DNA from: a virus
DNA length: 64,000 nucleotides
Virus record (IMG/VR): IMGVR_UViG_3300017644_000080
Strand: one strand, 5' to 3'
Each line of letters begins with the position of its first letter. The first letter of the stretch is position 1. The translations under genes were made by a program, and so were the position numbers. The notes beneath the pieces were generated by a model, which was not told the origin of the DNA, did no database searches, and worked only from the letters and a program-made list of their open reading frames with translations. Of the stretch, positions 26,553-62,699 are shown in pieces.

Positions 26553-26577
26553 TCAACTAGAACCTCTCTGGACCTAA

Positions 26578-39125: not shown

Positions 39126-39141
39126 TTAAATATCCCCTTCC

Positions 39142-40332: not shown

Positions 40333-40401
40333 TAAGCCTATTCCCTTGTCGATTTAAGCAGGAAGCGTGGGGCCAAAACCATTTCAGCCCCACGCCGAGA
40401 A

Positions 40402-41583
40402 TTAAGCGTTAACGGTCAGACCAGGAGCCTTGCCGCTGGCAACCAGATCGGCAATGCGACGCTTGCCATCTTCGACATAATCGCGAATTTCCTTCGCGTT
40501 CTGCTCCGATTCCTTGCGCATATCGGCAATGATCTTGGTGCTGTTTTCCTGGAACTCGACAACCGAGTCGACCAGCTTCTTCACCGACTGGGCGCGAATG
40601 CTCGGCCCATAACCCTTGCGGAGCGCATTTTCGGTAACCTTCGTGCCGACATCAGCGATGCTTTCAAGGCTCTTGGAAATGCCGTCATGCATAGCGTCCA
40701 AAGCCTGCGTGGCTTCATGGAGACCAAGCAGACCTGTGTAGGTCGCCTTGAGCGCCGTCAGAACCGAGCTGTTGGTGCTCATGAAAGCAACCGACTGCTT
40801 GAACAGGCGATCCTTGGCCATATGGGATTCAGCCAGCTTCGCCATAGTCACTTCGGTGACGGAGTAGGAAACCTGCAAATTGTTGGCGAGGTCCGTCGCA
40901 ATCTGCCAGCGATCTTCGACGGCCTTTGCAGCACGCTGCGCTTCATCGCGTTCCAGTTCGAGTCGGCTCTTCTCCTGCGGAGATGCGTCAGAAGCCTGCT
41001 GAACCAACGCCATTGCATCGGCAACCTTCGCCTGAGCGGCCTTAAGGTCCTCATCGAGAAGAGCCTTGATTTCGTAAGCGATGATCTCAGCTTCCTTGAT
41101 CGAGCTACGGAAATCCGCATAGGCTTCAAGAATGTTGCGCTCACGCTCCACCTGACTGCCGACGTCCTTGATCACTGCGTCGAACGTCTTGCGGATGGCG
41201 TCGAAGCGATCCGAAATGTCGCCGCGAGTGAGTTTCATGACGACGTTCGATACGCGGTCACCAATGGTCGGAGCAGAACGTTCAGCCTGCACAACAAGGC
41301 GCTTGGAGTCATCGCGAATGCTGTCGAAACTCTTTACGATTTCGTCGAAACGATTGCTGAAATTGATCTGAGAAATCTGGTTCGCAACCAGGCTGTCGAA
41401 ATTCTGCTGGTGAGACAGCGTGCGGGCAATAACGAGAACGCGATCTTCGTCGACATCGGAAATTCGCTTCAGAAGATCAACAATTGGAGCAGTGCCAGTG
41501 TCAGGCGAACCAACGCCGAGCACCTTCAGGCTATCAAGAGCCTTCTGGAGGAATTTCGGGGCAGTCTTCGTCACTTCAGTCAT
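40402..41583 (-). CDS. all-alpha coiled-coil protein, tentatively TelA/KlaB-like (toxic-anion-resistance family), 393 aa
   Basis: Size (~390 aa), all-helical composition, and a downstream membrane-protein gene resemble the telA(klaB)-telB arrangement; assignment from recalled family features, not a diagnostic motif. Confidence 0.35.
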   Translation of the reverse strand: MTEVTKTAPKFLQKALDSLKVLGVGSPDTGTAPIVDLLKRISDVDEDRVLVIARTLSHQQNFDSLVANQISQINFSNRFDEIVKSFDSIRDDSKRLVVQAERSAPTIGDRVSNVVMKLTRGDISDRFDAIRKTFDAVIKDVGSQVERERNILEAYADFRSSIKEAEIIAYEIKALLDEDLKAAQAKVADAMALVQQASDASPQEKSRLELERDEAQRAAKAVEDRWQIATDLANNLQVSYSVTEVTMAKLAESHMAKDRLFKQSVAFMSTNSSVLTALKATYTGLLGLHEATQALDAMHDGISKSLESIADVGTKVTENALRKGYGPSIRAQSVKKLVDSVVEFQENSTKIIADMRKESEQNAKEIRDYVEDGKRRIADLVASGKAPGLTVNA

Positions 41584-42020
41584 TCGCGTTGTTTCCTTTC
41601 AACAATTTCGTTTTCAGAGCATTCGATTGCCTGAGATATTTCAGATCGCCAATCGAACTCCCTCGGCGCATCACGCCTTTTTCTAAATGTCAGGTAATTT
41701 ATCCGCCCTTTAATGTCAACATATTTTCACGTATTTATAGCCCCTTCCCGAATAAATCTCCTTTAATTATTCTCTTTCGCTTTCTTGCCGATTTAGGCTG
41801 ATCGCAAGTCCTTGAATTTAAAGCCCCAAAAAGCCTCATATGCGGAAATAATTGCCGATCCGTGCTGCCGATTGCCCAGTATTCCTCCTTTATTTAAACA
41901 TGTCCCGAATTCGAAAGGAGGTTGCGGAGTCGAACAAAATCATTTACTCGTCAACAAATTTAATTGAAACTCAAATGGAGTTCAGATATCTGACCCATAT
42001 TGGAAAAGGCAGATTTACGC
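41584..42020. promoter_or_regulatory. long AT-rich divergent intergenic region
   Basis: About 430 bp between divergent TelA-like and AddB-like genes; contains short direct repeats (TTGCCGAT x2) near 41780-41880. Confidence 0.35.
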
Positions 42021-44687: not shown

Positions 44688-44688
44688 T

Positions 44689-47600
44689 ATGCTGAATGAC
44701 TCGACAGCTCGCCGTACGGCCCTTCTTGAAATCAATCGCACCCTCATGGTTGAGGCGGGCGCTGGATCGGGCAAGACATCGCTCATGGCAGGCCGCATCA
44801 TTTCGATGCTCGCCAACGGCGTTCACCCTCGCGACATCGCAGCTGTGTCCTTTACGGAAATGGCCGCAGCGGAATTGATGGGCCGCGTCAGTGATACGAT
44901 TGACGACGTTCTGAAAGGCACGCCTCCGGCCGACCTTCGCGCATCCTACGATGGCGGAAATATCGATCCCGAAGGCCAGGCCAAACTGCAGGAAGCGCAG
45001 CATCACCTCGGTGAAATGACCTGCACGACCATCCACGGTTTCTGCAAGCGCCTTCTGAAGCCTTATCCCGTTGAAGCCGACATCGATCCAGGCGCGGCGA
45101 TCCTCGACGCTACGCAGGCCTCACTTCTGTTCGAAGATGTGTTCAACGAATGGATTCGTGAGCGTCTCAACAGTGAGGACTATCACAAGGACATCATCAC
45201 TGAGATGGTGGCCACCCATTCCGACACAAAGGAAGCTATCGAAACGATCCGCCGTCTCGCAGACCAGCTTCGCGGTTCGCCAGACCTCTTCCTTCACAAG
45301 CAGGAATTTGACCTTGCACCTGCCAATCAACTGATTGATCAGATCGAGAAATACGAAAAATGGATCGCAGGCCTTGGCTTTGAAGCCGAAGGTAATGAGG
45401 ACATTCGTGCGGACTTCGCGCAACTGCGAAAAGAGCTGCGCGCCGCCATGGGACTGCCCAAGCATCAGGCCCTGATGAACATCATCCGGCTGAAGCTATC
45501 CTCGTCCGTTCTCAAGGTCGATGGAGGTTTCCGCGTCTACAAGATGAAGGGCAAGTGGCAGGCCGCCGCTCCTTCGAAAAAGGTCGGCGAAGACTGCAAC
45601 ACGGAAGCGACCGAACGCTATAACGAGATTGCCGCTGGCTACGAAGCTCTGAAGACCATGGCTGCGTCAGCCGCCCTCACGATCCTTGAGAGCGAAATTC
45701 GCCCGATGCTTGATCGCTATCGCGACCGTAAGCGTCAGGGTGCCGCCCTAGACTTCGAGGACCTGCTCGTCGCCACCCGTCAGCTCCTGCAGAACTATCC
45801 CGAGATCGCCAAGGCTCTTGGCCAGCGCTACAAGCACGTGCTCGTCGACGAATTTCAGGACACCGATCCGGTCCAGACCGAAATCTTCAAACACCTCTGC
45901 TTCGACCGCGATGCCGATGGCGAATGGGTCCCGCGTCCAGGCGCGATCTTCCTTGTGGGTGACCCCAAGCAGGGCATCTATCGCTTCCGTGGCGCAGACG
46001 TGAAGACCTATCTGGATATGCGCAACCTTCTCGAAAAGCACGACTCGACGTCGATCCTGAAGATTTCGACGAACTTTCGTTCGAGCAAAGGCATTCTGGA
46101 TTACGTAAACGACGTCTTTGACGTTCCGTTGAGCGCTCCCTCACAGCCAGGCTTTACCGCACTCGATCCATTCCGGCAGGACACCAGCAAACACCCGTCT
46201 GTGGCGACGATAAAGATTGGCGAACTGGATAACATTGCCGAGACACGTGACGAAGAAGCCCGTCAGATTGCAGAAATGGCGCGCAGGCTGATCAACACCT
46301 TCCCCGTCTTCGACAAGAAACTCGGTGCTACCCGCCCATGCAAACCGTCTGACATAGCTCTACTCGCGCCTACTGGCTCCGATCTGTGGCGCTACGAACA
46401 TGCCCTTGAAGAAGAAGGCATCTCTGTCGCCACGCAGGCTGGCAAGGGCATGTTCCAGCGTCAGGAAGTTCAGGACATGATTGCGATCACTCGCGTCCTG
46501 GCCGATCCGCGTGACCACCTTGCTCTCGGTGCTCTCCTGCGCGGGCCGCTGGTGGGCATGACAGAAACTGAGCTTCTCGATGCAGCCCACGGTCTTCCAA
46601 AGTTGGAAGACGGCGGACTTGCTCATCTGCACGTTGGTATCGACACAGGCCTGATCAAGAACCCTGTGCTCAAGACGGTGCTGGCCCAGCTGAATGCGCT
46701 TCGCAATTCTGGCAAATACACGACACCCTATGATGTCCTTTCCAGCGCCGTCGATGTGCTCAATGTTCGGGCGACTGTGAAGGCTCGCCATTCGAAGTCG
46801 CCCCACCGTGCTCTTGCCAACGTCGACCGCTTCCTCGAAATGAGCCGTCCTTACACAACCCGTGGCCTGCGCGCGTTCTCAGACGAAGTCCGCTCACTCT
46901 GGGAGGATGGCGAACGCATCGCCGAAGCACATCCAGACGGTGAAGATCAGTCGGTCTCCATCATCACCATGCACTCTTCCAAGGGACTGGAGTGGCCTGT
47001 GGTTTTCGTCATCAACACGATGACCGAAATCATGCGTTCCAAGCCTCTGGTCGTCGACGTCAGCTCGCGGCAAATCTCGATGCCGTTCTTTGGCTTCCAG
47101 CCAAACGGCTATAGCGAACTGAAGCAAATCTCAGATCAGGAGTCCCACAACGAGCGCGTTCGCCTGCTTTATGTGGCCACCACCCGTGCTCGCGACCTTC
47201 TCGTTGTCCCTGTGCATGAGAAGACTACCGAAAGGCAGTGGGCAACGGTTACGGACCTGAAGTTGCAGGACATCCAAACGATGGAGCTGGAAGGCTTCTC
47301 GAACGCGATGCGCGTGCAGCGCGACGTCACCGTTAACAATCAGGATGCGAAGACTTTCGCCGAGCAGACCGCTGCAATCCTCGCGGCCAAGAAGCCTGTC
47401 ATCAACAAGACCCCTTCCCGTCACGAAAGCCATGCATCGAGTTTGCGGATTTCGCTTGATGACCTGATTGACGCCGAACCAGTCGCCGATCCTTCCGAAT
47501 TCGTCCAGGGCAGTGCTGAACGCGGCGTTGTCATGCACAAGCTGATGGAAGAAATCCTGACTGGCGAACTGACAGACAATGAACCAGAGATCGAAAACCG

Positions 47601-47991
47601 TGCACGCGAACTGATCCAGCAAATGATCGCCTCCAAAGAGGATGAGATCAAAGACATGGATGCTCGCGTCATGGCCAAGGAGATCATGCAGACGCTGGCA
47701 TTGCCGCAAATCGCATCTATCCGTCATCGTCTCGTGCCAGAACTCGCAACCAGCTCGTCCTACGAGGACGACAAGTTCGAAGGCGTTACGTTCGGCATTA
47801 TGGACGCCGCCGAAATTAGCGACAGTGGCGTGGTCGAAACGATCATCGACTGGAAGTCTGACAGAAGTCCAACAGCGGCAACTATTGAATTTTACCGCGA
47901 TCAGATGTCAGACTATATGAAAATGAATTCGGCCAAACGCGGCTTGATCGTTTTCATGGCGAGCGGAAAAATCCTAGACATTGCCGCGTAA
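44689..47991 (+). CDS. addA: AddA-like UvrD/PcrA-family helicase with C-terminal RecB-type nuclease (1100 aa)
   Basis: Walker A VEAGAGSGKT near the N-terminus; DEFQDTDP motif II; GDPKQGIYRFRGAD motif III; C-terminal GIMDAAEIS...IIDWKSD nuclease motif; ATG at 44689 preferred over the ORF-track upstream extension. Confidence 0.75.
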   Translation: MLNDSTARRTALLEINRTLMVEAGAGSGKTSLMAGRIISMLANGVHPRDIAAVSFTEMAAAELMGRVSDTIDDVLKGTPPADLRASYDGGNIDPEGQAKLQEAQHHLGEMTCTTIHGFCKRLLKPYPVEADIDPGAAILDATQASLLFEDVFNEWIRERLNSEDYHKDIITEMVATHSDTKEAIETIRRLADQLRGSPDLFLHKQEFDLAPANQLIDQIEKYEKWIAGLGFEAEGNEDIRADFAQLRKELRAAMGLPKHQALMNIIRLKLSSSVLKVDGGFRVYKMKGKWQAAAPSKKVGEDCNTEATERYNEIAAGYEALKTMAASAALTILESEIRPMLDRYRDRKRQGAALDFEDLLVATRQLLQNYPEIAKALGQRYKHVLVDEFQDTDPVQTEIFKHLCFDRDADGEWVPRPGAIFLVGDPKQGIYRFRGADVKTYLDMRNLLEKHDSTSILKISTNFRSSKGILDYVNDVFDVPLSAPSQPGFTALDPFRQDTSKHPSVATIKIGELDNIAETRDEEARQIAEMARRLINTFPVFDKKLGATRPCKPSDIALLAPTGSDLWRYEHALEEEGISVATQAGKGMFQRQEVQDMIAITRVLADPRDHLALGALLRGPLVGMTETELLDAAHGLPKLEDGGLAHLHVGIDTGLIKNPVLKTVLAQLNALRNSGKYTTPYDVLSSAVDVLNVRATVKARHSKSPHRALANVDRFLEMSRPYTTRGLRAFSDEVRSLWEDGERIAEAHPDGEDQSVSIITMHSSKGLEWPVVFVINTMTEIMRSKPLVVDVSSRQISMPFFGFQPNGYSELKQISDQESHNERVRLLYVATTRARDLLVVPVHEKTTERQWATVTDLKLQDIQTMELEGFSNAMRVQRDVTVNNQDAKTFAEQTAAILAAKKPVINKTPSRHESHASSLRISLDDLIDAEPVADPSEFVQGSAERGVVMHKLMEEILTGELTDNEPEIENRARELIQQMIASKEDEIKDMDARVMAKEIMQTLALPQIASIRHRLVPELATSSSYEDDKFEGVTFGIMDAAEISDSGVVETIIDWKSDRSPTAATIEFYRDQMSDYMKMNSAKRGLIVFMASGKILDIAA

Positions 47992-48032: not shown

Positions 48033-49622
48033 ATGGATTCAAAGCCGCAACTGGTCAGCGATCAGGATATTGATTCAATTGCCCAGATACTTGAAGACAG
48101 AATGAATGACAATGCACGTTTCATTGACGCTATGAATGTTGATGACAACGATTTTGCAGATTTGGATCATGAAACTTATCGGTGCACAGCAGAATTCAAA
48201 ACTGACGTTATTTTTGACATCGATTTTTATATAGACACCCACGCAGGAACGTCCGACGACGACAGATTCCCACTGCTCAGCGATAAAGCTTCCGTCGCAA
48301 GCCAACTTGCCAAGGCGTCTGAACTTCGTGGGAAATACGAAAAACCAGAGTTCATAAAAGAATTCGTAAAAGCCGGAAAAAGGAAAGTCCAGCTTGCTGA
48401 CGCACACGTTGCTCGCAACAGTTATTCCTGCACCTCCTGTAGCGGTCGCGGCTCTAACAGCTGCTCCAATTGTAGTGGGCACGGCACGACCACGTGTTAC
48501 AAATGCACCTTTGGTACAGTGATGTGCTTCCATTGCGGCGGATCGGGAAAAGCGGACCCATCAGCCAGTCGCCACCGTACTCCATGTTCTTTGTGTTTCG
48601 GCTCGGGACGCAGACGTTGTGACGATTGCGAAGGAACTACGAAGATCACCTGCGGGTCATGTGATGGTGCAGGAGATATTAGATGTGGCACTTGTCAGCA
48701 AACAGGTGCTTTGACTGACTTCTATGGCGTCAAATACACCGCCGAATTCAAACACAATATGATAAATTCGACGTTCCTGGAGGATGAATTTTATCCGCTT
48801 CATGATTGGATGCACAGCGGATACGCAAACGCGAATACAAAGAGCTTGCAGTCCCCTTCCATGACCATACACAAGGTCGAGTTGGACCAAAATCCGACAT
48901 TGGAAAAGGCCAGACATGGGCTGATCATAAAGATCGATGCATTAAAGCTGACGCTTGATGGCAAGTACAAGAACAAGCCGATTTCAGCCAGATACATCAT
49001 GTTTGACAAACCTTGGGTTTGGTACAGCCCGTATTTGGATGAAGCCGTCGATGGAATAGCCGAGCAAGCTCAGAAACTGGCGAACAGTTCACCGTCCGAG
49101 TTTCTTGCCCAGATGTCGAAGCACCCGCTCATCAATGAAGCCCTGAGGAAAGGATGGGATCGCGACGACACCCATGGCGCAAAGTGGGCAGAAAAAATCC
49201 AGCAGGACAGCCTCGGCTCGATAAGTCAGGAAGCTGCAAGGCCGATATTCGTCGCCTTCCGTCATTGCATGGAAAACCACGAGAAAGCGACCGTCAGGAA
49301 GACATTCAAACTGCCATTACTCGCAACGTTCCTGCTCTGGCTCGGGACGCAGTACATGGACCTTCCGTGGGTGATATCCCATGGCGGCATAGGGACCATA
49401 TTCCTCGTCCTTTACGTTCTCGCCCCTTACTTCATCACCAGCAAGATGATCCAATCGAGCGTCAAAAGGCGCATGCGCAAGGAAACAGGCGCAGACCAGG
49501 AACCGAAGCTGGGCGTTGCCGGACGCGTAGTGCCGATACTCAGCTCTGCGCTTTTCGCAGCCACCTGGCTCTTCGGCTTTCAGTTGTCCCATATCATGAT
49601 CGCTGGTCGTCCATTATTCTGA
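48033..49622 (+). CDS. membrane protein with DnaJ-type CxxCxGxG zinc-finger cluster (529 aa)
   Basis: Eight CxxC motifs in ~120 aa (CTSCSGRG, CSNCSGHG, CYKCTFGT, CFHCGGSG, CSLCFGSG, CDDCEGTT, CGSCDGAG, CGTCQQTG); three C-terminal TM helices; 41 nt after the AddA-like stop. Confidence 0.55.
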   Translation: MDSKPQLVSDQDIDSIAQILEDRMNDNARFIDAMNVDDNDFADLDHETYRCTAEFKTDVIFDIDFYIDTHAGTSDDDRFPLLSDKASVASQLAKASELRGKYEKPEFIKEFVKAGKRKVQLADAHVARNSYSCTSCSGRGSNSCSNCSGHGTTTCYKCTFGTVMCFHCGGSGKADPSASRHRTPCSLCFGSGRRRCDDCEGTTKITCGSCDGAGDIRCGTCQQTGALTDFYGVKYTAEFKHNMINSTFLEDEFYPLHDWMHSGYANANTKSLQSPSMTIHKVELDQNPTLEKARHGLIIKIDALKLTLDGKYKNKPISARYIMFDKPWVWYSPYLDEAVDGIAEQAQKLANSSPSEFLAQMSKHPLINEALRKGWDRDDTHGAKWAEKIQQDSLGSISQEAARPIFVAFRHCMENHEKATVRKTFKLPLLATFLLWLGTQYMDLPWVISHGGIGTIFLVLYVLAPYFITSKMIQSSVKRRMRKETGADQEPKLGVAGRVVPILSSALFAATWLFGFQLSHIMIAGRPLF

Positions 49623-50442: not shown

Positions 50443-50585
50443 TCCTCAACTGGCTATTTCCGACAAAACCTCAGCGCATGTGCAAAACGCATGGCTGCAG
50501 GCACGAGCAGCCAAACCTTCTGGATGAGAAATGCCTGATCTGCCGCCTGCCTATGGACGACTGAGATTATCCGCTATTGAATGTG

Positions 50586-51542
50586 CTAGCGGCCCATTCC
50601 GTTCACGAGATCCGGCTTGTTAACCCAGGTCAGATGTTCATCGAGAAGCTGGTCTTCTCCTCGCCACGTATATGCTGCCAGAACGCCATCCTTCGCAATC
50701 GAGAAGTCGAGACAAGCGATCTTAGGCGAGAGTAGATATGGCGTTCCGCTCATCCAGTAGTGACCGAAGAACGTCAGCTTGTTCGATGGCGCGATCTTCA
50801 GATGATCCGGCAGCTCGATCTCAGGCAGGTCCTCTAGGCCTTCTTCCGGCATGACAGCATTGCGATAGTTCGTGGCGTCGTCTTTCCACCACTGAATACG
50901 CGACTTGCGCCGGACAACGCCCCCTTTGTCTGTGAAGGTGAACCCTTCCGGCAGATCGACTTCCAATCCCTTCAGGACGATCTCAATAGGACTATTGAGG
51001 TCGTGGCCCTGCTCGAAGCTCGCAAACAGAGCATCGCGCTTCATGGAGCCGTCTTCGTTTAGATGAGGCTTCAGAGTATCGAGAGACTTAGGGTGCCAGC
51101 ACGCGTGCGTAGCTCGTAACTCATCAGTCTCGAAGGAAACGGGCAGGGTCGAGAAAAATTCGACCATTTCTTTATGGAGATCGCTGTCTTCACCAACGGC
51201 TTCTATGAACGCCTTGTGCTGAAAGCGGTTCTTGGGTCCACGAAGACGCATGTGACGGCCAGACTTGCTGCCAGGAACAGGAGTAGCGTAGCCGATTGCG
51301 TTGAGTTCGTGATTGCCCATCAGAACATGGGCGGTACCAGCATCACGCATGCGGCGAGCGATGTCGATGGAAAGGAGCTGGTCGGGTCCGCGATCAATCA
51401 GATCGCCCAAGAAAACAGCCATCCGGTTCGGATTTGAATGACGGTATGCGCCATTTTTGTTTTCGTAGCCGAGATTGTCTAGTAGCGCTTCAAGCGCATC
51501 TGCGTGACCGTGAATATCTCCAATAAAATCGTATTCCATCAT
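50586..51542 (-). CDS. PPP-family Ser/Thr phosphatase / ApaH-like metallophosphoesterase (318 aa)
   Basis: GDIHGH, GDLIDRGPD, GNHE motifs of the PPP (PP-lambda/PrpE/ApaH) family. Confidence 0.8.
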   Translation of the reverse strand: MMEYDFIGDIHGHADALEALLDNLGYENKNGAYRHSNPNRMAVFLGDLIDRGPDQLLSIDIARRMRDAGTAHVLMGNHELNAIGYATPVPGSKSGRHMRLRGPKNRFQHKAFIEAVGEDSDLHKEMVEFFSTLPVSFETDELRATHACWHPKSLDTLKPHLNEDGSMKRDALFASFEQGHDLNSPIEIVLKGLEVDLPEGFTFTDKGGVVRRKSRIQWWKDDATNYRNAVMPEEGLEDLPEIELPDHLKIAPSNKLTFFGHYWMSGTPYLLSPKIACLDFSIAKDGVLAAYTWRGEDQLLDEHLTWVNKPDLVNGMGR

Positions 51543-51903
51543 ACCTTCTTTTTATTTTTATTTATCACTCCTATGAGACCTCAATAATCTGCAAACAGCA
51601 ACGGTTAGCCTTCTGACACATCCAAGGAATCAAGCTCGTTTTCGATGTCCAGGAGTTCCTTATTTAAGGCGGCCAATTTGTTCCCGCTCGGATCGATTGT
51701 GGGATATGCCTCGATAGTCTCAATATCCTGCAGTATTTCTGTATGCCTATCGACTAAGGAATCAAATCGAGAATATGCCATAGTTCACCCGCTTTAACGT
51801 GGCCGAATGCCAATAATAGCCTTGCCTTCCTCGCGGTCGAAGCTCCGATAGGCTGGCGCAAGAGGCGTAACCATGACACCCCCCCGCGATGTCGCAACCG
51901 AAA

Positions 51904-53196
51904 TTACTTCGGCTGAATGATCTCCAAGCCGCCCATGTAAGGCCGAAGAGCGGTCGGGATCGTAATCGTACCGTCCTCGTTCTGATAGTTCTCCATGATC
52001 GCGATCAAGAGGCGGCCGACAGCGACACCCGAACCATTGAGGGTGTGAACGAATTCAGTGCCCTTCTGGCCGCGCGTCTTGTGGCGAGCATTCATACGAC
52101 GGGCCTGGAAGTCGCCGCAGTACGAGCAGCTCGAAATCTCACGGTAGGTCTTCTGACCGGGCAGCCAGACTTCGATGTCGTAGGTCTTACGGGAGCTGAA
52201 GCCCATATCGCCGCCGCATAGTAGCATCACGCGGTACGGAAGCTCGAACGCCTGCAGAACAGCCTCAGCAGCACCTAGCATGCGCTCCAGTTCCGCTTCG
52301 CCGTCCTCTTCCTTCACAATCGACACCAGCTCGACCTTGTTGAACTGATGCTGACGAAGAATGCCACGGACGTCGCGGCCAGCCGAACCAGCTTCCGAGC
52401 GGAAGCACGGAGTAAGCGCGGTGAAGCGCTGAGGCAGGCTTTCCGTCTCCACGATCTGATCCGCGACAAGATTGGTGAGCGAGACCTCCGCAGTCGGGAT
52501 CAGATAGCGGCCATCAGTCGTTTTGAAGAGGTCTTCCTCAAACTTCGGAAGCTGCCCTGTACCGAACATAGCGTTTTCGCGCACCAGCAGCGGCACCTGG
52601 CACTCCTCGTAGCCGTGCTTGGCGGCCATATCGAGCATGAACTGCCCAAGCGCACGTTCCATCCTGGCGATACCACCACGAAGGACGACAAAGCGCGAAC
52701 CCGAGATGCGGCCAGCGCTCTCGAAATCAAGACCACCGAGTTCTTCACCAAGCTCGAAATGCTGCTTGGGTTCGAATCCCATTTCGGGGATCACACCCAC
52801 GGTGCGAACAAGGACATTTGCCTTCTCGTCAGCGCCAGCAGGCACGCTATCGAGCGGGAGGTTCGGGAACGTAGCGAGGCGATCATTCAGAGCATCACCA
52901 ACCGCTTTCGCCTTGACCTCCAGCAACGAAATGCTTTCCTTCAGCGTCGCGACATCCTGCTTGAGAGCATCCCCCGACGCCTTGTCGCCAGCCTTGTAGA
53001 AGGCTCCGATTTTCGCGGAAAGAACCTTGATCTCATGGTTTTTTGTTTCGATTTCCGAGTTCGTTTCATTCACGGCATCACGGCTATCGCGAACAAACTC
53101 GAAAATGAACATAGCGTCGTCACGCGTGTAACCGCGCTTCTCAAGGCCCGCTACGAATGCGTCCTTGTTTTCAATAATGGTTTTAGCGTTATGCAT
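51904..53196 (-). CDS. serS: seryl-tRNA synthetase, bacterial type (430 aa)
   Basis: N-terminal coiled-coil arm; class-II motifs TPCFRSEAGSAGRD...HQFNKVELV (motif 2) and GSGVAVGRLLIAIMENYQ (motif 3); C-terminal ALRPYMGGLEII. Confidence 0.9.
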   Translation of the reverse strand: MHNAKTIIENKDAFVAGLEKRGYTRDDAMFIFEFVRDSRDAVNETNSEIETKNHEIKVLSAKIGAFYKAGDKASGDALKQDVATLKESISLLEVKAKAVGDALNDRLATFPNLPLDSVPAGADEKANVLVRTVGVIPEMGFEPKQHFELGEELGGLDFESAGRISGSRFVVLRGGIARMERALGQFMLDMAAKHGYEECQVPLLVRENAMFGTGQLPKFEEDLFKTTDGRYLIPTAEVSLTNLVADQIVETESLPQRFTALTPCFRSEAGSAGRDVRGILRQHQFNKVELVSIVKEEDGEAELERMLGAAEAVLQAFELPYRVMLLCGGDMGFSSRKTYDIEVWLPGQKTYREISSCSYCGDFQARRMNARHKTRGQKGTEFVHTLNGSGVAVGRLLIAIMENYQNEDGTITIPTALRPYMGGLEIIQPK

Positions 53197-53229
53197 TTAT
53201 CCTGCTTTCAAAGCCTATTCTATGATCCC

Positions 53230-53811
53230 TTACTTACCAGCGTCCTTGCTGGAAATCTCTCGCGTTTTCTTGAGAGATTTTGAGATCATAGATCGAAGCT
53301 GATCCCGATAGAGGGCATCATCCTTCTTCTTCGGTTTGAAATAGCCCCAGTTATCGAGCAGCAACAGAAATTGCTGATGCTGCTCACGCGTCAGCTTCAT
53401 GATGTCATTCATGAAGCTGTGCATGACCACGACACGCGGATCGCCGTCAGGCGACATCGTGATAACCATCTTCGTATCCGCATTCGGATCAGTCTTTTCG
53501 ACCAATCCCCCAACGAAATCCTGGCGATCATGGTTTGCTTCAAACCACGGCAACAGATCGCTGCAATCAATGATCGGCACGTATTGGACGCCGCCATCAG
53601 CTTCGTCGATGCGCTTCACGATGCCGTCGCTTACGAGAGTGTCCAACGCATCCTGCGCACGCTTGGTAGGACGAACCGCCTTCATGCCAAATCGAAGCAC
53701 ACCTTTATTCGGCTCAAGCATGCCAAACCAAGCCGCACAAATTGCCTTCACTTCATCAGTAAGTTTCTCAAACTTTTCGATGCTCATAATTAAATTCCTC
53801 TTCGCGGGCAT
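53230..53811 (-). CDS. hypothetical protein (193 aa)
   Basis: ORF 33 nt upstream of serS on the same strand. Confidence 0.45.
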   Translation of the reverse strand: MPAKRNLIMSIEKFEKLTDEVKAICAAWFGMLEPNKGVLRFGMKAVRPTKRAQDALDTLVSDGIVKRIDEADGGVQYVPIIDCSDLLPWFEANHDRQDFVGGLVEKTDPNADTKMVITMSPDGDPRVVVMHSFMNDIMKLTREQHQQFLLLLDNWGYFKPKKKDDALYRDQLRSMISKSLKKTREISSKDAGK

Positions 53812-53871
53812 TTAAACACCAACGACAGATAAATAGCAACAAAATTATCCAGAAAATAAACGGTATATTGT

Positions 53872-54450
53872 TTAAAAATTCAAAGCATAATCTTCGATTT
53901 TGCCAAGTCGCTGGTAGTCCGGAATTATTATTCCCAGAGCTGTAACAGATCCAGAGAGAAAACCGCCGAGTTCAACCCGAATGGTCTCGTCATTTCTGTA
54001 TATGGCTGCGGCCAGACGATGATATCCATCATAGACGCTGGTCGAGCCGCCATCAGGTGAATTGAACTCGATCTCGATTGGCTCATCGGAGCCGTTCTGA
54101 ACGAGATAGGCGATCCGCTCTTCGTGTTTGGCCGCTCCCCAAGATCGATCATAAACAGATTTGACGGCTGAATATGGCTCGTTTTCGAAGCGGGAAGCCT
54201 CAATCGCCGCCTTCACACCTTCGATGGATACGCCTTCACCGTCGTGCCAAGGCGAAATCTCGAATGGATTGAACTCGGCAAGTCGCTTAAGCGGCAACAA
54301 GCCAATCAAGCGGCCCTCTTCATCTGGATGAAAGGACACGAGGTGTTCAGGGCCGCCCCAAAGGTCGGCTTCCTCAATTGCAATAATCTCGAACTCGTCT
54401 TCGTCCATCACCACGTCTCTAGAACAGCAAACGGACTCACCGTCGCCCAC
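53872..54450 (-). CDS. small protein with ParB/Srx-like DGxHRxxA motif (192 aa)
   Basis: C-terminal SVYDGYHRLAAAIY matches the DGhHRxxA signature of the ParB/sulfiredoxin nuclease-like fold. Confidence 0.4.
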   Translation of the reverse strand: MGDGESVCCSRDVVMDEDEFEIIAIEEADLWGGPEHLVSFHPDEEGRLIGLLPLKRLAEFNPFEISPWHDGEGVSIEGVKAAIEASRFENEPYSAVKSVYDRSWGAAKHEERIAYLVQNGSDEPIEIEFNSPDGGSTSVYDGYHRLAAAIYRNDETIRVELGGFLSGSVTALGIIIPDYQRLGKIEDYALNF

Positions 54451-54617
54451 GTAAGGCCATCGTACTCGACCAGGTGGTGTTCTCCAAACTGGTCCAGAAC
54501 ATCAAAGACCCCTTGATCCGCATAAGGCTGCGTCTCACCGACAAACTGGACCTTTCGACCCAGGTCGTCATCCATCACCGACAATTCGATTTCATCGCCA
54601 ATCTTGGGCTGTTTCAT
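54408..54617 (-). CDS. small hypothetical protein (~69 aa)
   Basis: Internal Met MKQPKIGDE overlaps the upstream stop by ATGA; acidic. Confidence 0.3.
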   Translation of the reverse strand: MKQPKIGDEIELSVMDDDLGRKVQFVGETQPYADQGVFDVLDQFGEHHLVEYDGLTWATVSPFAVLETW

Positions 54618-55621
54618 GCCATTTCTCCTTCCAAGATGCCCGCATCCAGTCGCCCCTTCTCGGTGACGACATAACCAACACCACCGCTCTCGATCCAACC
54701 AGCTGTCATCAGATCATTGATCTCACCGTTGCTAATGTCGAACGCACCGCATCTCGCACGAGGATTGGAGCGCTTACTGTAAGCATGCAGACCACCCGCC
54801 GCATGGGCATCTGCGAGCAGCTTTTTACGTTTTGAGGTCATCTTGATCGTAGCGACATAGGCATCACGAATGGCCTTCGTCTTGGCTTCCTCAGCCTGTT
54901 TCAATGCAGACGAGATTTTTTCAGAGATCACAATCACTTCGGAGATGGTGGCAATACCGCTCACTTTGATGTCGAACTCGTCCGTCTCAAATCCGTTCTC
55001 CTGCAAGATCGAGTGAACGAGTGCTTTATGCTGAGGATGAAACTGGAAAAGTTCACCGCAGGAGGTTTCGACCGAATACGGACCAGAAGGCTCCTTGAAA
55101 GACACCTGCATCAAGTCGCCTTGAGAGTTTTTGACACGCAGGAATCCACGGCCAAATTCAAAGCCAGTTGGTTGCCTTTCAAAGCGCGATCCGCCTGCAG
55201 CGACAAATGCGTCGAGAATTGGCTGCGCGGCAGTGGAATCAGCAGCATGATCCCGTGCACGTTCTGCAGTGACTCTGTCCAGATGGCGAGCGATGGCTGC
55301 CGAGTCGTGCTTGCCGTAAGTATGGTCTACGAATTTCAAACAGTCTTTGACTGCATTCCCTTCACGACGAGGTTCATCAAGGCGACCGATGATGACAATT
55401 CTGTTTGCTTCGGTGGTGCCGACATTCCAGTCATAGACGACGCTGTTCCCCAGCCCACCATAGTTGAGACCCTGCACAAAAGATTCAGCTGTCCTGCCAT
55501 CTGGGAACGAATGAATTTCAACCAGGAACGACGGGAGCTGATCAACTGATGTCAGCGGCTCACCATCGAGCGCGGCGATGCCTGTATTGTTATCCAGATT
55601 GACGAACAGCTCGACCCTCAC
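54614..55621 (-). CDS. hypothetical protein (335 aa)
   Basis: Start overlaps the upstream gene's stop (translational coupling). Confidence 0.45.
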   Translation of the reverse strand: MRVELFVNLDNNTGIAALDGEPLTSVDQLPSFLVEIHSFPDGRTAESFVQGLNYGGLGNSVVYDWNVGTTEANRIVIIGRLDEPRREGNAVKDCLKFVDHTYGKHDSAAIARHLDRVTAERARDHAADSTAAQPILDAFVAAGGSRFERQPTGFEFGRGFLRVKNSQGDLMQVSFKEPSGPYSVETSCGELFQFHPQHKALVHSILQENGFETDEFDIKVSGIATISEVIVISEKISSALKQAEEAKTKAIRDAYVATIKMTSKRKKLLADAHAAGGLHAYSKRSNPRARCGAFDISNGEINDLMTAGWIESGGVGYVVTEKGRLDAGILEGEMA

Positions 55622-56013
55622 TCCACGCCTCCTGGCTTGTCTGGATCTTCGGGATGACGCTCAGCCCGGATGTGATACTTGGCTTTAGAAGACCGGAGGG
55701 TCGACAGGATGCGGGCGATCTCACCATAAGTCAGCTGGTTTTCAGCGACAGAGGTTGCGAACACATCGCCGAGCATCTTCAGGGACGAGGTCAACGTATC
55801 TTCAGGGAGACTATAGGTGGGCCATTCAGTTGCGGCCTGTGTTTCAGACAATCCACGGCGCGCAGCAGCGATCCAGTACCGCTCAATCTCATTGAATACG
55901 AAATATACATCGGCATATTCCATTTCACTGATTTCGATAAAATGACTGGATGCATCGAGTCCGAACTTGGCCTCAGCCTTGTTAACGATCATTTCTCTCT
56001 TATGGATTTTCAT
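55618..56013 (-). CDS. hypothetical protein (131 aa)
   Basis: ORF 23 nt after the PPP phosphatase gene. Confidence 0.4.
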   Translation of the reverse strand: MKIHKREMIVNKAEAKFGLDASSHFIEISEMEYADVYFVFNEIERYWIAAARRGLSETQAATEWPTYSLPEDTLTSSLKMLGDVFATSVAENQLTYGEIARILSTLRSSKAKYHIRAERHPEDPDKPGGVE

Positions 56014-56036
56014 TTTCCCGTTCCAAGTAACCCAAC

Positions 56037-56888
56037 TTAAGCTGCCATCGCGAATTCAACGTATTCATTCTTGTTGAGCACAGTACCGAGACCGCGATCA
56101 AGGCGAATTGGTTCAACATCGACGACAGATTTCGCACTGCCATCGGTCTGAAAGAAGCGGTACGAGCCATCTTCAATTGCGACGGCAGTCAGACGGCCAC
56201 TTTCATAAGCACCAGTGTCGATAGAAATACGGTTCTCGGTAACGACAGGCTTGTCACCAACGACAGTGTGGCCGTGCACGACTACGTTCTGCAGATGGCC
56301 GACATGTTCCAAGAACGGGTCCCTGATCCACATCAGGTCTTTCTCGTTCTGATCAGCCAGCGAGGCCTTCGGATCGATGCCAGCATGAGCAAACACGATG
56401 CCATCTACGACAGCCATCGACTTGGCGGTTGCAAACATACGCAGGTGATCGCCATGCATGGTTCGCACGAGTTCGATAGCCTCGTTCAGGTCACCATAGT
56501 GATAAGAAGCCAGCGTCTCAATGCCGCCGCGCGAAATCCAAGCGGCCGCATAACGGCGATCACGCTCGTGAATAGCCTTCAGAAATAGATCGTCATGATT
56601 ACCCTTGAGGACGATGGAGCCTTCGTACTCAACGAGAGCTTCGGCAACGATGTCCATGGCCTGACGCGAACGAGGCCCTTTATCACAGATATCGCCGAGG
56701 AAGATAAAACGGGGCGCGGCACCATGGGTAGAGGCGTCATTTACAGCGTGAGCAATAATCGCATTCAGAAGATCAGCTCGACCGTGTACATCACCAATTG
56801 CATAAGTGATTGTCTTCGACATTTTCTCGCCCCTTTTGGATGCGAGAATTAATATCATTATTGAATGGGTTGTCAATAAAATATTCAA
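56037..56888 (-). CDS. PPP-family Ser/Thr phosphatase-like metallophosphoesterase (283 aa)
   Basis: YAIGDVHGR, FLGDICDKGP, LKGNHD motifs. Confidence 0.8.
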   Translation of the reverse strand: MNILLTTHSIMILILASKRGEKMSKTITYAIGDVHGRADLLNAIIAHAVNDASTHGAAPRFIFLGDICDKGPRSRQAMDIVAEALVEYEGSIVLKGNHDDLFLKAIHERDRRYAAAWISRGGIETLASYHYGDLNEAIELVRTMHGDHLRMFATAKSMAVVDGIVFAHAGIDPKASLADQNEKDLMWIRDPFLEHVGHLQNVVVHGHTVVGDKPVVTENRISIDTGAYESGRLTAVAIEDGSYRFFQTDGSAKSVVDVEPIRLDRGLGTVLNKNEYVEFAMAA

Positions 56889-56950
56889 ATAAAAAGGCGA
56901 GAACTCCGCAATTAATTACGAAATCCCCGCGTCTCTAACATTCCAGAATC

Positions 56951-57520
56951 TTATTTTCGTTTCAAGTCCTGAATCACCAGATTTCCGCTATCAATATCCT
57001 GCAGCATTCGCGTAAGCATTTCGGCATCGCCTTTGTTTTTGGCGACCTTGGCTTCTACAGCCTCGATATCCTTTTTCAGGACATCGATCCGCTCGCTGTA
57101 AAATTCGGCGCTTGAATCCGCGTTTTTCAAAGCCCATTCGACAGCCTCGCGTTTATCGGTGAAATGCGAATTGTCGTACTGCAGAACACCAGAATGCGTG
57201 GTGTTGGGAAATCCGAGCTTCTCGGCCTTGTCCTCGACAATCTGGTTGCCATCCCACGTATAGACGGTGGTAGATTCCGAGAATTCATCTGCCTTGTTTA
57301 GCAGCTCTACGAACAGGTTGGGATCAGCTTTGATTTCATTTTGATACCGCATGAGTTCGCCTTTCCGATCCCACAAATCGTCGTAAGGCTTGATGATCAC
57401 ACCTTCAGCTGTGATGCCGATCAAATTCGGTGCCATGGGCGAACCGATATAAACCATGTCGCCAACCTTGTGCACTATATGACCGACCTTATAATGTTCC
57501 TTGATGGCTTTAACGCCCAT
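56951..57520 (-). CDS. hypothetical protein, tandem paralog 1 (189 aa)
   Basis: MGVKAIKEHYKVGH...; ~35-40% identical to the adjacent gene. Confidence 0.45.
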   Translation of the reverse strand: MGVKAIKEHYKVGHIVHKVGDMVYIGSPMAPNLIGITAEGVIIKPYDDLWDRKGELMRYQNEIKADPNLFVELLNKADEFSESTTVYTWDGNQIVEDKAEKLGFPNTTHSGVLQYDNSHFTDKREAVEWALKNADSSAEFYSERIDVLKKDIEAVEAKVAKNKGDAEMLTRMLQDIDSGNLVIQDLKRK

Positions 57521-58319: not shown

Positions 58320-59048
58320 TCAGATGGTGAACTTGATGCCGTCATCATCGAGCGACGGCTTCGGCCGGATTATAACGGCAACTGCATGCCGAGTATCTGT
58401 GGCAATATCGGCCGCGAAACGGTGCCAGCCGTCCAGAATGGCCAATCCCTGATCATTGCCGTTATCTACGACGAACTTTGGGGTGTGGTGCTTTTCCAGA
58501 ACCAAATCTGAGTAGCCTGCCGAGCCTTCAGCAAGGTGGATTTCGTGCTGTTCAACCAGCCATTTAATCCACTCGTCCCGAGACTGAATGGCGAGCATTT
58601 GACCGACGTCAAACTGCTTGTCGACCTCGATGTCCGCATCCTCTTTTGCGCAACCACACACTTCGGAGTCCCACCACGAATGCGCTTCTCTGATAGCGGC
58701 GTCGAGAGTTGGATCGGGATCAGGTCTTAGCCATGACCTCACTGTCAGCCAGGCTTCATATCGGCCGAGGGTAACCAAGTCATCATGAGACAACTTCGTC
58801 TCTCGTTTCCCGAAAAAGAAGCTGTCGATGTCGTCCTGATCGAACTCCTTCCAGATGATGCCGTAGATATCCTCGGTCTTCCCAAGCGCCTCATCCACAC
58901 CTGTCTTGAAGCCTTCTACGTGAGCTGGAGACCAACCAAACATGCCAGCTGCGATCTCCATCCGACGTAGGATTTCTTCCTTGATATAGCTCATCTTCTT
59001 TATCCAGAAATGTGCCTCCACTTTCACTAAATTAAGTGCAAGCAACAA
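58320..59048 (-). CDS. protein with C-terminal ParB/Srx-like DGxHRxxA motif (242 aa)
   Basis: GLAILDGWHRFAADI near the C-terminus; second such protein in the window. Confidence 0.4.
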   Translation of the reverse strand: MLLALNLVKVEAHFWIKKMSYIKEEILRRMEIAAGMFGWSPAHVEGFKTGVDEALGKTEDIYGIIWKEFDQDDIDSFFFGKRETKLSHDDLVTLGRYEAWLTVRSWLRPDPDPTLDAAIREAHSWWDSEVCGCAKEDADIEVDKQFDVGQMLAIQSRDEWIKWLVEQHEIHLAEGSAGYSDLVLEKHHTPKFVVDNGNDQGLAILDGWHRFAADIATDTRHAVAVIIRPKPSLDDDGIKFTI

Positions 59049-60971: not shown

Positions 60972-61136
60972 ACCAGTATCTCCTTTAGCTTCGCGTACTG
61001 CGCGTATTTAATGTGGCTTTTACATTTCTACGTTAAATATGTCAAATATTTTCGAGAAAATCTGAATAAATAAACAAATTTGATATTGATGTCGTCCTCC
61101 TAAAATGCTATATCGAGCGCGAATAAGGAGAAAATA
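60972..61136. promoter_or_regulatory. AT-rich divergent promoter region
   Basis: 165-bp AT-rich gap between the minus-strand array and the plus-strand AbiE pair; AAGGAG 7 nt before the ATG at 61137. Confidence 0.4.
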
Positions 61137-61769
61137 ATGTCGAGCGCCTGGACAAAGGAAGATTTCAACGGCTGGATGGACCGCAACGGTCTCACCTATG
61201 TTGAGGCTTGTGAAGTCCTGAACCTCTCCATCGACGACGTTTGTCATCTGATGGATGGCACCAAACCAGTCTGGGCAGAAGATCAGGAACGTGCTGAACG
61301 TTTCGAAGCCAGCCGCTTTGTATCCGATGACATCGACATGGCCGCCGCCCTTGCTGAACTCTCCAACACCTGCAAGCTGTGCCCGCAGGGCGTCATCACG
61401 GGTGTCAGTGCAGCCGCTCTCCGTGGCTGGACAACAGCCAACACGCATGTTTACTTCGTCGCCCTCCTTCCCGCGCATGTCGGCAAGCCACTTCCTTCGA
61501 ATGTGGTTCCGGTTGTCACGGACAACATTCTGGATCGCGTTGAAGTCCGTAAGGACGTTGAGGGCGGCTGGTATCGTCTCGCTGATCCAGTTCGCACGGT
61601 TGTCGATGCTGTCCGTGACGACGTCTCTCAGGACCGTTTCTCGGTCGAGGAACTCGTTCGCGAAGCCATCGCTGAAGGTGTGGATCGCGCTGAGCTGCTC
61701 GATTTCGCTCAGAAGCAGGGCGAACATGCGGTCGAGCGTCTGAACTTCTACCTCTCTCAGATCGAGTAG
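61137..61769 (+). CDS. AbiEi-like antitoxin / transcriptional regulator (210 aa)
   Basis: Immediately upstream of an AbiEii-family gene with 66-nt spacing; size and layout of type IV TA antitoxins. Confidence 0.5.
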   Translation: MSSAWTKEDFNGWMDRNGLTYVEACEVLNLSIDDVCHLMDGTKPVWAEDQERAERFEASRFVSDDIDMAAALAELSNTCKLCPQGVITGVSAAALRGWTTANTHVYFVALLPAHVGKPLPSNVVPVVTDNILDRVEVRKDVEGGWYRLADPVRTVVDAVRDDVSQDRFSVEELVREAIAEGVDRAELLDFAQKQGEHAVERLNFYLSQIE

Positions 61770-61835
61770 GATGGTTTGTCCAATGCTGAAGTCGAAGCCA
61801 TCATCAGGTGACTTCGATTTCAGCAGGACACCGAT

Positions 61836-62699
61836 ATGCAGCCAGGCGATCAGATCGCAGAATCCATCAGACAACGCGCAAAGAACTCTGGGTTCGATCC
61901 TCTCGACGCCATGCGCAGGTATGTCATGGAGCGCTTCATCGTCCGCCTAAACATGGCTGACAAAGCTGACAAGGTCGTACTCAAGGGCGGTATGGTCTGG
62001 TGGCTACGACCGGAACTCGCCGAACACGCTCGTTCAACCTACGATGTCGACATTCATCTCCACGTCCCCGAGAAGCACGAAGACGTCGTCACACTGTTCC
62101 AGTCAGCCCAAGAGATCGACTGCCAGGACGGCTGTCGATTCGAATTCAAGAAGATCAGGAAACTGGAACACGCTGGTGATCACGAAGGCCTGCGCGTGAT
62201 GGTCCGCGCCTACATCGGCACCAAGTTCGTCGATTTCCATAGCGATATCGGCTTCGGCGGCACCAAGCCATCCAACCTTGCTGCGACCAGCTTCAAGTCG
62301 ATGCATCCTCGCGTTTCAGGCGGCAGCATCCTGATGACCCCTCCAGAATTCGTCGTTTCGGAAAAGCTCTCAGCCATCATCAAGAACGGAATGACCAATA
62401 CCCGCATCAAGGACTACAACGACCTATACGTTCTGTCGGAGATTGGGATTGACGGAGCTGACCTCGCTTATGCGTTGGAGACCACATTCACGGATCGCAA
62501 CCAGGATATCCCCTCAGACATTGGCGAAGTCCCTGGTCTCACATCAGAATACGCGGCCGCAAATCAGGAAGCATGGGAGCGCTGGTTGGTGCAGGCAAAT
62601 CGCTCTACAAAGATGCCGAAGGATTTTGGGGAAGTCGTCGAAAAAGTCAGCGAATTTGCAGACGCAATTTTCTCTTACAAGAACTCCCCTGCCCCGTAG
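61836..62699 (+). CDS. AbiEii/AbiGii-family nucleotidyltransferase toxin (DUF1814), 287 aa
   Basis: NTase motifs LKGGMVWWL...RSTYDVDIHL (hG[GS]...DxD) and the C-terminal RIKDYNDLYVL motif characteristic of AbiEii. Confidence 0.7.
   Translation: MQPGDQIAESIRQRAKNSGFDPLDAMRRYVMERFIVRLNMADKADKVVLKGGMVWWLRPELAEHARSTYDVDIHLHVPEKHEDVVTLFQSAQEIDCQDGCRFEFKKIRKLEHAGDHEGLRVMVRAYIGTKFVDFHSDIGFGGTKPSNLAATSFKSMHPRVSGGSILMTPPEFVVSEKLSAIIKNGMTNTRIKDYNDLYVLSEIGIDGADLAYALETTFTDRNQDIPSDIGEVPGLTSEYAAANQEAWERWLVQANRSTKMPKDFGEVVEKVSEFADAIFSYKNSPAP

Follow-up and report, generated by a model that had tools for sequence, protein, structure and literature searches.

The DNA analysed here is a stretch of 64,000 nucleotides from a virus record (IMG/VR virus record IMGVR_UViG_3300017644_000080; the whole of this 64-kb stretch is called the window below), and the subject of the analysis is its gene for seryl-tRNA synthetase (SerRS), serS, which is located on the minus strand at positions 51904-53196. 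This SerRS is probably an auxiliary xenolog that has long been resident on a family of giant, megaplasmid-like mobile accessory replicons of the Hyphomicrobiales. The initial annotation, made from the sequence alone, had offered an auxiliary or resistance SerRS, a mobile-element-borne aminoacyl-tRNA synthetase (aaRS) and a captured sole serS as possibilities. The mobile-element-borne aaRS is favoured by the present results, because the gene is a conserved resident of low-GC (guanine plus cytosine), mosaic giant replicons rich in ORFans and lies outside the Hyphomicrobiales radiation. Additional tRNA synthetases have already been described on the mobile genomes of huge phages and giant viruses, and antibiotic producers are known to possess resistance copies. 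What is new here is a well-conserved and constrained SerRS on a megabase-sized, mostly uncharacterised replicon in a cultured strain, Mesorhizobium sp. SP-1A; since the replicon is present in that strain, what the element gains from a synthetase of its own is experimentally tractable.

Integrity, constraint and placement of the SerRS

The 430-aa product is a full-length bacterial-type (class IIa) SerRS. It scored 486.6 bits on the NCBIfam model TIGR00414 (serS equivalog; cut-off 301.65) over model positions 1-418 of 418, and the methanogen-type serS_MJ models TIGR00415 and NF002120 gave only 15.8 and 20.3 bits (cut-offs 489 and 611). Pfam recognised the class II core (PF00587, tRNA-synt_2b; 134 bits) and an N-terminal coiled-coil arm of full length (PF02403, Seryl_tRNA_N; 40.9 bits, cut-off 28.2; residues 1-114). 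Motifs 1 to 3 (GYEECQVP, FRSEAGSAGRDVRGILRQHQFNKVE and GSGVAVGRLLIAIMENYQ, at residues 195, 265 and 388) were intact, and of the 92 columns with a conservation of at least 95% among 118 other SerRS, 91 were kept; the sole altered column, L317F, is common to the whole clade to which the enzyme belongs. The nearest solved structure was the SerRS of P. aeruginosa (6hdz; E 1.8e-124). The description of a complete bacterial-type SerRS with all class II motifs in the initial annotation was thus borne out by the TIGR00414 score, the motifs and the conserved columns. Every feature for seryl-adenylate formation and for serine transfer to tRNA-Ser is present, and judged from its sequence the enzyme should be catalytically competent.

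Strong purifying selection acts on the gene, with a ratio of nonsynonymous to synonymous substitution rates (dN/dS) of 0.04-0.07 among the relatives (about 0.05) at a dS of ~1-1.5. It is also the most conserved gene of its neighbourhood: SerRS was 88-94% identical between relatives, compared with 31-90% for the neighbouring genes. However, this conservation is not evenly distributed within the protein, as the tRNA-binding coiled-coil arm evolves much faster than the core. The arm (first 105 residues) was 26% identical to alphaproteobacterial arms, whereas 41 +/- 6% was found for alphaproteobacterial pairs of equal core identity, so that the divergent N-terminal arm pointed out earlier is a real property of the enzyme. 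Within the clade itself, the most distant member showed 42% identity in the arm and 85% in the core.

Close relatives of the SerRS formed a small group, 73-100% identical, in a search of 5.8 billion proteins; its listed representatives came from metagenome sources only (JGI, Logan, ENA), and the next matches outside the group were alphaproteobacterial SerRS at ~60% identity. A phylogenetic placement had been proposed as a check in the initial annotation. In the neighbour-joining tree the group was recovered as a distinct clade of its own with 100% bootstrap, outside the SerRS radiation of the Hyphomicrobiales. Distances from the clade were 0.54-0.59 to the best Alphaproteobacteria and 0.75 to a betaproteobacterium, and the mean distance between the clade and Alphaproteobacteria (0.67) exceeded that among Alphaproteobacteria (0.53). 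The canonical SerRS of Mesorhizobium, Aquamicrobium, Pseudaminobacter, Chelativorans, Pseudochrobactrum and Rhizobium were 69-83% identical to each other (72-83% among Mesorhizobium and Phyllobacteriaceae) but 54-60% identical to the window SerRS. By these comparisons the enzyme appears nearest to the Alphaproteobacteria, yet outside the Hyphomicrobiales radiation, and its sequence indicates that it is not a vertically inherited Hyphomicrobiales serS. The codon usage of serS was ordinary for the window (cosine 0.92) and the GC content at third codon positions (GC3) only mildly raised (z = 1.6), and therefore the gene does not look like a recent arrival.

The genomic context is also unlike that of chromosomal serS genes. 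In a complete Labrenzia genome, the neighbourhood reads scpB, tatA, tatB, tatC, serS, surE, pcm and an M23 peptidase gene. When 54 fully flanked alphaproteobacterial loci were searched up to 10 kb from serS, 49 contained SurE and Pcm and 41 TatC, while neither the window nor any of the related element loci gave a match to the three; the absence of the classical serS neighbours, already remarked on in the initial annotation, therefore holds against this control. Canonical bacterial SerRS (TIGR00414; 6hdz and Aquifex 2dq3) have the same architecture of arm and class II core as the window enzyme. Unlike them, the window enzyme stands in a context other than tatABC-serS-surE-pcm on an ORFan-rich, low-GC giant replicon, does not group within the radiation of the order to which its host apparently belongs, and has an arm with 26% identity where 41% would be expected.

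The carrier replicon and the competing explanations

The 90% cluster of the window SerRS includes WP_315922393.1 of Mesorhizobium sp. SP-1A, which is encoded on a contig of 1,189,113 bp in assembly GCA_032460275.1. The SP-1A locus is 95-98% identical in DNA to positions 41899-62498 of the window, with an equal gene set, and SP-1A was the only NCBI organism found with these element proteins. A member of the sister SerRS cluster occurred on 151 JGI contigs, the longest of 1.0 Mb. The GC content was 42-52% across the element loci (~52% in the 21-kb SP-1A locus and in the window), compared with 61-65% at the canonical serS loci of Mesorhizobium and its relatives (61-64% for Mesorhizobium). About two-thirds of the 58 open reading frames (ORFs) of the window had no Pfam family. 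The recognisable genes code for an autotransporter subtilase, an AAA ATPase, RNase J, AddAB, M48 and LemA, SPFH, DsbB, CYTH and AbiEii proteins and a DUF6384 cassette. Across 97% of its length, the AAA ATPase shared 38% identity with large-plasmid proteins of Pseudomonas and enterobacteria, and the three-gene DUF6384 cassette is found on megaplasmids of Rhizobium, Bradyrhizobium, Methylorubrum, Microvirga and Pseudomonas.

No match was obtained when 24 kb were compared by megablast with phage and plasmid collections (INPHARED, PLSDB), when IMG/VR was scanned with the 623-aa and AAA proteins, when JGI metagenomes were scanned with the initial 40 nt of the window, or when the window SerRS and P0001 were looked up by exact sequence. 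Among the matches listed for GTDB species-representative genomes there was no similar element, and the absence of the element elsewhere is independently supported by the protein-cluster searches, in which no other NCBI members appeared. No literature on strain SP-1A or its accession was found.

The gene order of the serS region was kept on metagenome contigs of 164-275 kb. However, sequence identity switched inside the block: the part upstream of a 178-aa protein gene was closest to one relative and the downstream part to another. Such a mosaic between relatives indicates recombination with breakpoints inside the serS block. The regional GC content ranged from 42 to 52% among the window and five related loci (L001, L002, L106, L108 and L125), whose SerRS are 73-96% identical. 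This GC spread and the partner-switching identity point to a family with fast compositional drift and frequent recombination.

The carriers are most likely megaplasmid-like replicons that have some genes in common with jumbo phages, in view of their megaplasmid-matching genes, the lack of virion genes in the sequence at hand, and a size of at least 1.19 Mb, beyond the largest phage genome quoted. Less favoured alternatives are an integrated island, a huge phage and a mislabelled chromosome. The window SerRS is most likely a second, horizontally acquired copy in its host. It could supply the replicon with its own Ser-tRNA-Ser and could boost or buffer charging at times when the enzyme or the tRNA pool of the host runs short or comes under attack, a role that has been proposed for huge-phage tRNA synthetases. 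The phosphatases on either side of it and a ParB/Srx-like protein may be co-located cargo and not obligatory partners. The carrier may be a more interesting object than the SerRS itself, being at least 1.19 Mb in size, with about two-thirds of its genes without a family and outside the collections searched.

Several observations weigh against the interpretation as an auxiliary SerRS of a mobile replicon. The label Mesorhizobium for SP-1A is that of the submitter. A canonical serS of SP-1A was sought through the 90% clusters of ten Hyphomicrobiales SerRS, among which SP-1A was not listed. No virion, packaging, replication, partition or conjugation genes were found in the 64-kb window and the 9-kb SP-1A flank. 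Similarly, there were no tRNA genes in the window and 10 related loci, which cover part of the replicon, and nothing therefore shows a partnership with an element-encoded tRNA-Ser. The sister group of the SerRS clade was weakly supported (bootstrap 14-39). Moreover, the co-transcription of serS with its neighbours, taken up below, is suggested by spacing, and the promoter-like sequence at 56849-56876 was rejected by the promoter scan, as its -10 hexamer fails the scan rule.

It is rather unlikely that the window serS is the only SerRS of its organism, either a mislabelled low-GC organism or one that has lost its native serS, with the contig being a chromosome or an essential chromid. The enzyme is intact and strongly constrained, several window genes are core-like (AddAB, RNase J, HtpX-like M48, LemA, SPFH, DsbB), contigs of 1.0-1.19 Mb are chromosome- or chromid-sized, and no second serS was found via the 90% clusters of the ten canonical SerRS. 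There are also PLSDB records of serS on secondary replicons of Azospirillum (1.8 Mb), Bosea (692 kb) and Sphingomonas (880 kb), which resemble the window in carrying the gene on a large non-chromosomal alphaproteobacterial replicon. Those copies, 54-58% identical to the window SerRS, appear to be the organisms' own vertically inherited genes, however, whereas the window SerRS is a divergent xenolog among GC and gene content foreign to the named host. A sole housekeeping enzyme would hardly show only 54-60% identity to every Hyphomicrobiales SerRS when these are 70-83% alike, nor lack the conserved tatABC-serS-surE-pcm context, nor stand among ORFs of which about two-thirds have no Pfam match, with GC of 42-52% across relatives and mosaic recombination; and SP-1A is the only NCBI genome with these proteins. 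RefSeq WP_ accessions imply an assembly screening that the chromosome of a second organism would probably fail, and the element proteins hold such accessions, which likewise speaks against this explanation. A huge or jumbo phage, free or integrated, whose SerRS aids translation during infection is an unlikely carrier as well. The closest described parallel is nevertheless found among cultured phages with an annotated SerRS, namely the Brevundimonas jumbo phages vB_BpoS-Gurke, -Papperlapapp, -Domovoi and -Marchewka (Dolichocephalovirinae, 320-357 kb), whose enzymes are 45-47% identical to the window SerRS; SerRS also occurs on IMG/VR contigs of 415-578 kb. In these phages, grouped here with the tRNA synthetases of metagenomic huge phages (Al-Shayeb et al. 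2020), a full-length SerRS lies, as in the window, among hypothetical genes on a very large mobile genome associated with Alphaproteobacteria. The window SerRS is related to, yet distinct from, host enzymes, as would be expected of a phage gene. A pair of MazG-like and small class II aaRS-like genes at 13977-15345 is syntenic with gp132/gp133 of phage CcrColossus, the phosphatases are NinI-like, the AAA ATPase matches PBS1/AR9, and two cassette genes are shared with Yersinia phage phiR1-37. However, no capsid, portal, terminase or tail gene was found in ~73 kb, the lone PHROG match to a virion protein being a LemA gene, and the contigs of 1.0-1.19 Mb are larger than 841 kb, the largest phage genome quoted in one source (10.1101/2025.02.27.640493). 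The Brevundimonas phages have at least 24 tRNAs and no neighbours in common with the window, whereas no tRNA gene was present in the window or the 10 related loci. The family was not found in the IMG/VR scans, the autotransporter, AddAB and toxin-antitoxin module fit a plasmid better, and the AAA ATPase and DUF6384 cassette match megaplasmids better than phages.

Antibiotic self-resistance or target replacement, of the type known for albomycin/SB-217452 or for other seryl-adenylate mimics, is highly improbable as the role of the gene. Second SerRS copies in this role exist (PMC9437257), and the window serS is clearly outside a housekeeping context, as is the albomycin-resistant SerRS2 of Streptomyces. 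That enzyme, however, has its gene linked to a biosynthetic cluster and shares ~30% identity with the housekeeping SerRS (PMC9437257), and neither holds for the window enzyme, which is ~60% identical to ordinary SerRS with a whole active site and 91 of 92 conserved columns kept. No nonribosomal peptide synthetase, siderophore, nucleoside-antibiotic or export genes were present in the window or flanks, and it is the tRNA-binding arm that evolves fast and not the adenylate pocket; the resistance option of the initial annotation is accordingly unsupported. A SerRS paralogue with a non-translational role, either as an amino-acid:carrier-protein ligase or as a regulatory SLIMP-like protein, is just as hard to credit. 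SerRS-derived proteins of this kind are known (PMC9437257), the N-terminal arm is unusually divergent, and the window holds a separate small class II aaRS-like gene. The known ligases and SLIMP are truncated or catalytically altered, though, while the window SerRS is full length with an arm of normal length, passes the equivalog cut-off, retains the residues for serine binding and has motifs 2 and 3; there is also no carrier-protein gene nearby. An unlikely and more speculative reading is that the carrier belongs to a new class of rhizobial megabase replicon, dominated by ORFans, low in GC and neither classical megaplasmid nor phage, with a partly autonomous translation and RNA toolkit, in which the PPP phosphatase, a 185-aa protein and SerRS form a functional unit. 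The toolkit would comprise the SerRS, the small class II aaRS-like protein and RNase J, with a truncated ThrRS and a Tpt1-like protein in relatives. HipA-type kinases phosphorylate aaRSs. The trio might counter host or competitor systems that disable aminoacylation, with the phosphatase reversing aaRS phosphorylation or clearing diadenosine tetraphosphate (Ap4A), and the fast-evolving arm might track an altered or element-specific tRNA-Ser.

The gene run around serS and its proteins

On the minus strand, a tight gene run from ~56.9 to 49.7 kb includes serS. Its genes code, in order, for a 261-aa phosphatase, 131-aa, 335-aa, 69-aa, 178-aa and 185-aa proteins, SerRS, a 58-aa ORF, a 318-aa phosphatase and a 260-aa ORF. 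The features are as follows.

56897-56930, minus strand: terminator-like hairpin with a T-run (15 pairs, CTTTTTATTT tail), which divides the gene at 56951-57520 from the phosphatase
56849-56876, minus strand: promoter-like TTGACA, 16 nt, TATTAA, a tentative reading by eye
56037-56822, minus strand: PPP-family metallophosphoesterase, 261 aa, likely the first gene of the transcription unit
55618-56013, minus strand: 131-aa protein, 31-88% identical in relatives
54614-55621, minus strand: 335-aa protein, 61-90% identical in relatives; its GTG start overlaps the upstream stop (GTGA)
54408-54617, minus strand: 69-aa ORF, with translational coupling on both sides (ATGA, TGATG); absent from the initial annotation
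53872-54408, minus strand: 178-aa ParB/Srx-fold protein
53230-53787, minus strand: gene for the 185-aa protein (193 aa if the start is at 53811)
51904-53196, minus strand: serS, full-length bacterial-type SerRS
51605-51781, minus strand: 58-aa ORF downstream of serS
50586-51542, minus strand: second PPP-family metallophosphoesterase, 318 aa, 77-78% identical in relatives
50492-50513, minus strand: first minus-strand terminator-like site past serS, with a weak tail; possibly the end of the unit

Three junctions overlap (GTGA at 55621/55618, ATGA at 54617/54614 and TGATG at 54410/54406), and the 33-nt gap before serS (53197-53229) is real, in agreement with the tight same-strand spacing and coupled genes reported earlier. 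The gap contains an AGGA ribosome-binding site and gave no promoter-like match in the promoter scan; a promoter of its own in this gap, together with a genome that has no other serS, had been named in the initial annotation as something that would speak for simple housekeeping. From the short gaps, the overlapping stops and starts and the terminator just upstream of the phosphatase, it can be inferred that serS is probably transcribed with its upstream neighbours from a promoter before the PPP phosphatase. The combination of the terminator hairpin and TTGACA-N16-TATTAA just upstream of the phosphatase would fit a transcription unit starting there.

The limits of the array had to be revised. 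The probable transcription unit opens with the phosphatase gene, the gene with which the array was said to start, but the same-strand run itself reaches upstream to ~61874. The start of the phosphatase, formerly set at 56888, is more likely the ATG at 56822 (261 aa), since the relatives have 260-261 aa. SerS is not the last gene of the array, because the 58-aa ORF, the PPP phosphatase at 51542-50586 and the 260-aa ORF come after it on the same strand, and the terminator scan of the minus strand found no terminator-like site directly after serS. A 68-69-aa gene was also called at the place of the 69-aa ORF in L001, L106, L108 and L125, and an additional 154-176-aa gene lies between serS and the 58-aa ORF in L001, L106 and L108. 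In L002, the most divergent relative (SerRS 73% identical), only the phosphatase, a 179-aa protein and SerRS are still adjacent, and all four genes that otherwise separate the phosphatase gene from the 185-aa gene are missing, the ParB/Srx-like gene among them. Joint conservation is limited to the phosphatase, the 185-aa protein and SerRS. The array thus stands as a tight same-strand run, whereas a single functional unit would be too strong a claim in view of the losses in L002, the recombination breakpoints and the occurrence of the ParB/Srx-like protein without SerRS.

Both phosphatases flanking serS carry the motifs GDxHG, GDxxDxG and GNH[DE], as read in the translations. The 261-aa protein (Pfam Metallophos 42.1 bits; phrog_246 'NinI-like' 4.2e-40) is PP-lambda/NinI/ApaH/PrpE-like, and the 318-aa protein (Metallophos 44.2 bits) has a weak likeness to Pnkp-phosphatase, PrpE and ApaH. 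Neither reached an ApaH, PrpE, PrpA/B or Pnkp equivalog (20-60 bits against cut-offs of 176-750). There are four metallophosphoesterases in the 64 kb, all on the minus strand (3020-3817, 17188-17997, 50586-51542 and 56037-56822); the two flanking serS are PPP-type and the other two YfcE/acc_ester-like. A phosphatase adjoining serS is less remarkable for this reason. The 335-aa and 131-aa proteins gave no family match in Pfam and PHROG scans.

The gene of the 185-aa protein is directly upstream of serS in every relative (L001, L002, L106-L110, L125 and L127). The protein formed only six clusters among the 5.8 billion proteins and is confined to this element family; a scan of JGI metagenomes with the family found only two contigs of ~1.2-1.5 kb. 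It had no Pfam or PHROG match. Its AlphaFold2 (AF2) model was weak (predicted local distance difference test, pLDDT, 65) with faint winged-helix-like matches, and a fold assignment was dropped after the structure search gave no credible match.

The 178-aa protein has a ParB/Srx-fold core, in line with the initial annotation: the fold was recovered, and D127, G128, H130 and R131 (DGxHR), which follow a hydrophobic strand, were invariant in 19 homologues. It had no Pfam (ParBc) or NCBIfam match and no helix-turn-helix or C-terminal domains. Being small and without a ParBc match, it is regarded as a protein of ParB/Srx fold and not as a partition ParB. A paralogue at 58320-59048 was recognised by direct comparison. 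Homologues of the 178-aa protein were seen in Neorhizobium tomejilense and on further ORFan-rich contigs where no SerRS accompanies them, and it is therefore considered co-located cargo, not a partner of SerRS. In detail, a homologue 47% identical is found without SerRS in N. tomejilense GCA_023667605.1 (1.97-Mb contig) and metagenomes (L114-L117), in an ORFan-rich region of 60% GC that also holds a metallophosphoesterase, a RecD2-like helicase, DnaJ, T5orf172, a YAcAr/DprA-like gene and DUF8359. The region may represent a distant relative of the element in a different rhizobial genus. A 340-aa neighbour in Neorhizobium was considered as a homologue of the window 335-aa protein and rejected, as the comparison showed no homology. 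Another homologue lies on L120 (91 kb, ORFan-rich), together with a truncated ThrRS-like protein (3543-4784, minus strand), which has catalytic and anticodon domains and no N-terminal editing domains, and a Tpt1/KptA RNA 2'-phosphotransferase-like gene (8257-8787, plus strand). The truncated ThrRS and Tpt1-like gene suggest that such elements may repeatedly recruit class II synthetases.

Other features of the window and its flank

A small class-II-core-like phage protein is encoded by a 241-aa ORF in the minus-strand region 13977-15345; its C-terminal 180 residues match phrog_4806 ('histidyl tRNA synthetase', E 1.8e-40). The 272-aa ORF before it ends in 83 MazG-like residues that share 69% identity with gp132 of Caulobacter phage CcrColossus. 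The pair is syntenic with CcrColossus gp132/gp133, with 69% and 40% identity. The 241-aa ORF had no Pfam or NCBIfam match and the 272-aa ORF no Pfam match. The DUF6384 cassette (37686-41583, minus strand) consists of a coiled-coil protein with a Ser/Gly-rich tail, the DUF6384 protein and a 393-aa protein; it shows 28-38% identity to the megaplasmid copies and is partly present in Yersinia jumbo phage phiR1-37 (g190/g191). In the region 25515-27141 (minus strand), a LemA gene and an M48 (HtpX-like) peptidase gene form a pair. A PHROG assignment of 26578-27141 as 'virion structural protein' was rejected, because the product belongs to the LemA family (Pfam 2.5e-52) and is encoded next to the M48 peptidase. 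Rfam detected no RNA family in the window.

The complete AddB/AddA helicase-nuclease pair (42000-47991, plus strand), 81-88% conserved in relatives with mildly raised GC3, is among the best-conserved features of the element besides SerRS. It is followed by a 529-aa protein (48033-49622, plus strand) with CxxCxGxG-like cysteine repeats, which by eye have the look of a DnaJ-type zinc finger, and C-terminal membrane helices. This protein had no Pfam match at 1e-3 and diverges fast, being 33-59% identical in relatives. The AbiEii nucleotidyltransferase toxin in the region 61020-62699 (287 aa) is 100% identical to the SP-1A protein; an overlapping 284-aa ORF upstream of it, on the opposite strand, may be an AbiEi-like partner. 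In the 9 kb past the right end of the window, SP-1A carries ART-PolyVal, DUF6927, DprA, a methyltransferase and ORFans.

Three candidate pairs of tandem or nearby paralogues, all coding for element-specific proteins, were noted (56951-57520/57574-58110, 32700-34874/34951-37215 and 53872-54408/58320-59048). The first is supported by both genes matching one gene of L001, and the second, of 724 and 754 aa, is based on a shared weak match to phrog_28193. Finally, an autotransporter of 994 aa is encoded at 6810-9794 (minus strand); it combines a subtilase (S8) passenger with a PATR repeat and a beta-barrel and would be a surface or secreted protease of a diderm.

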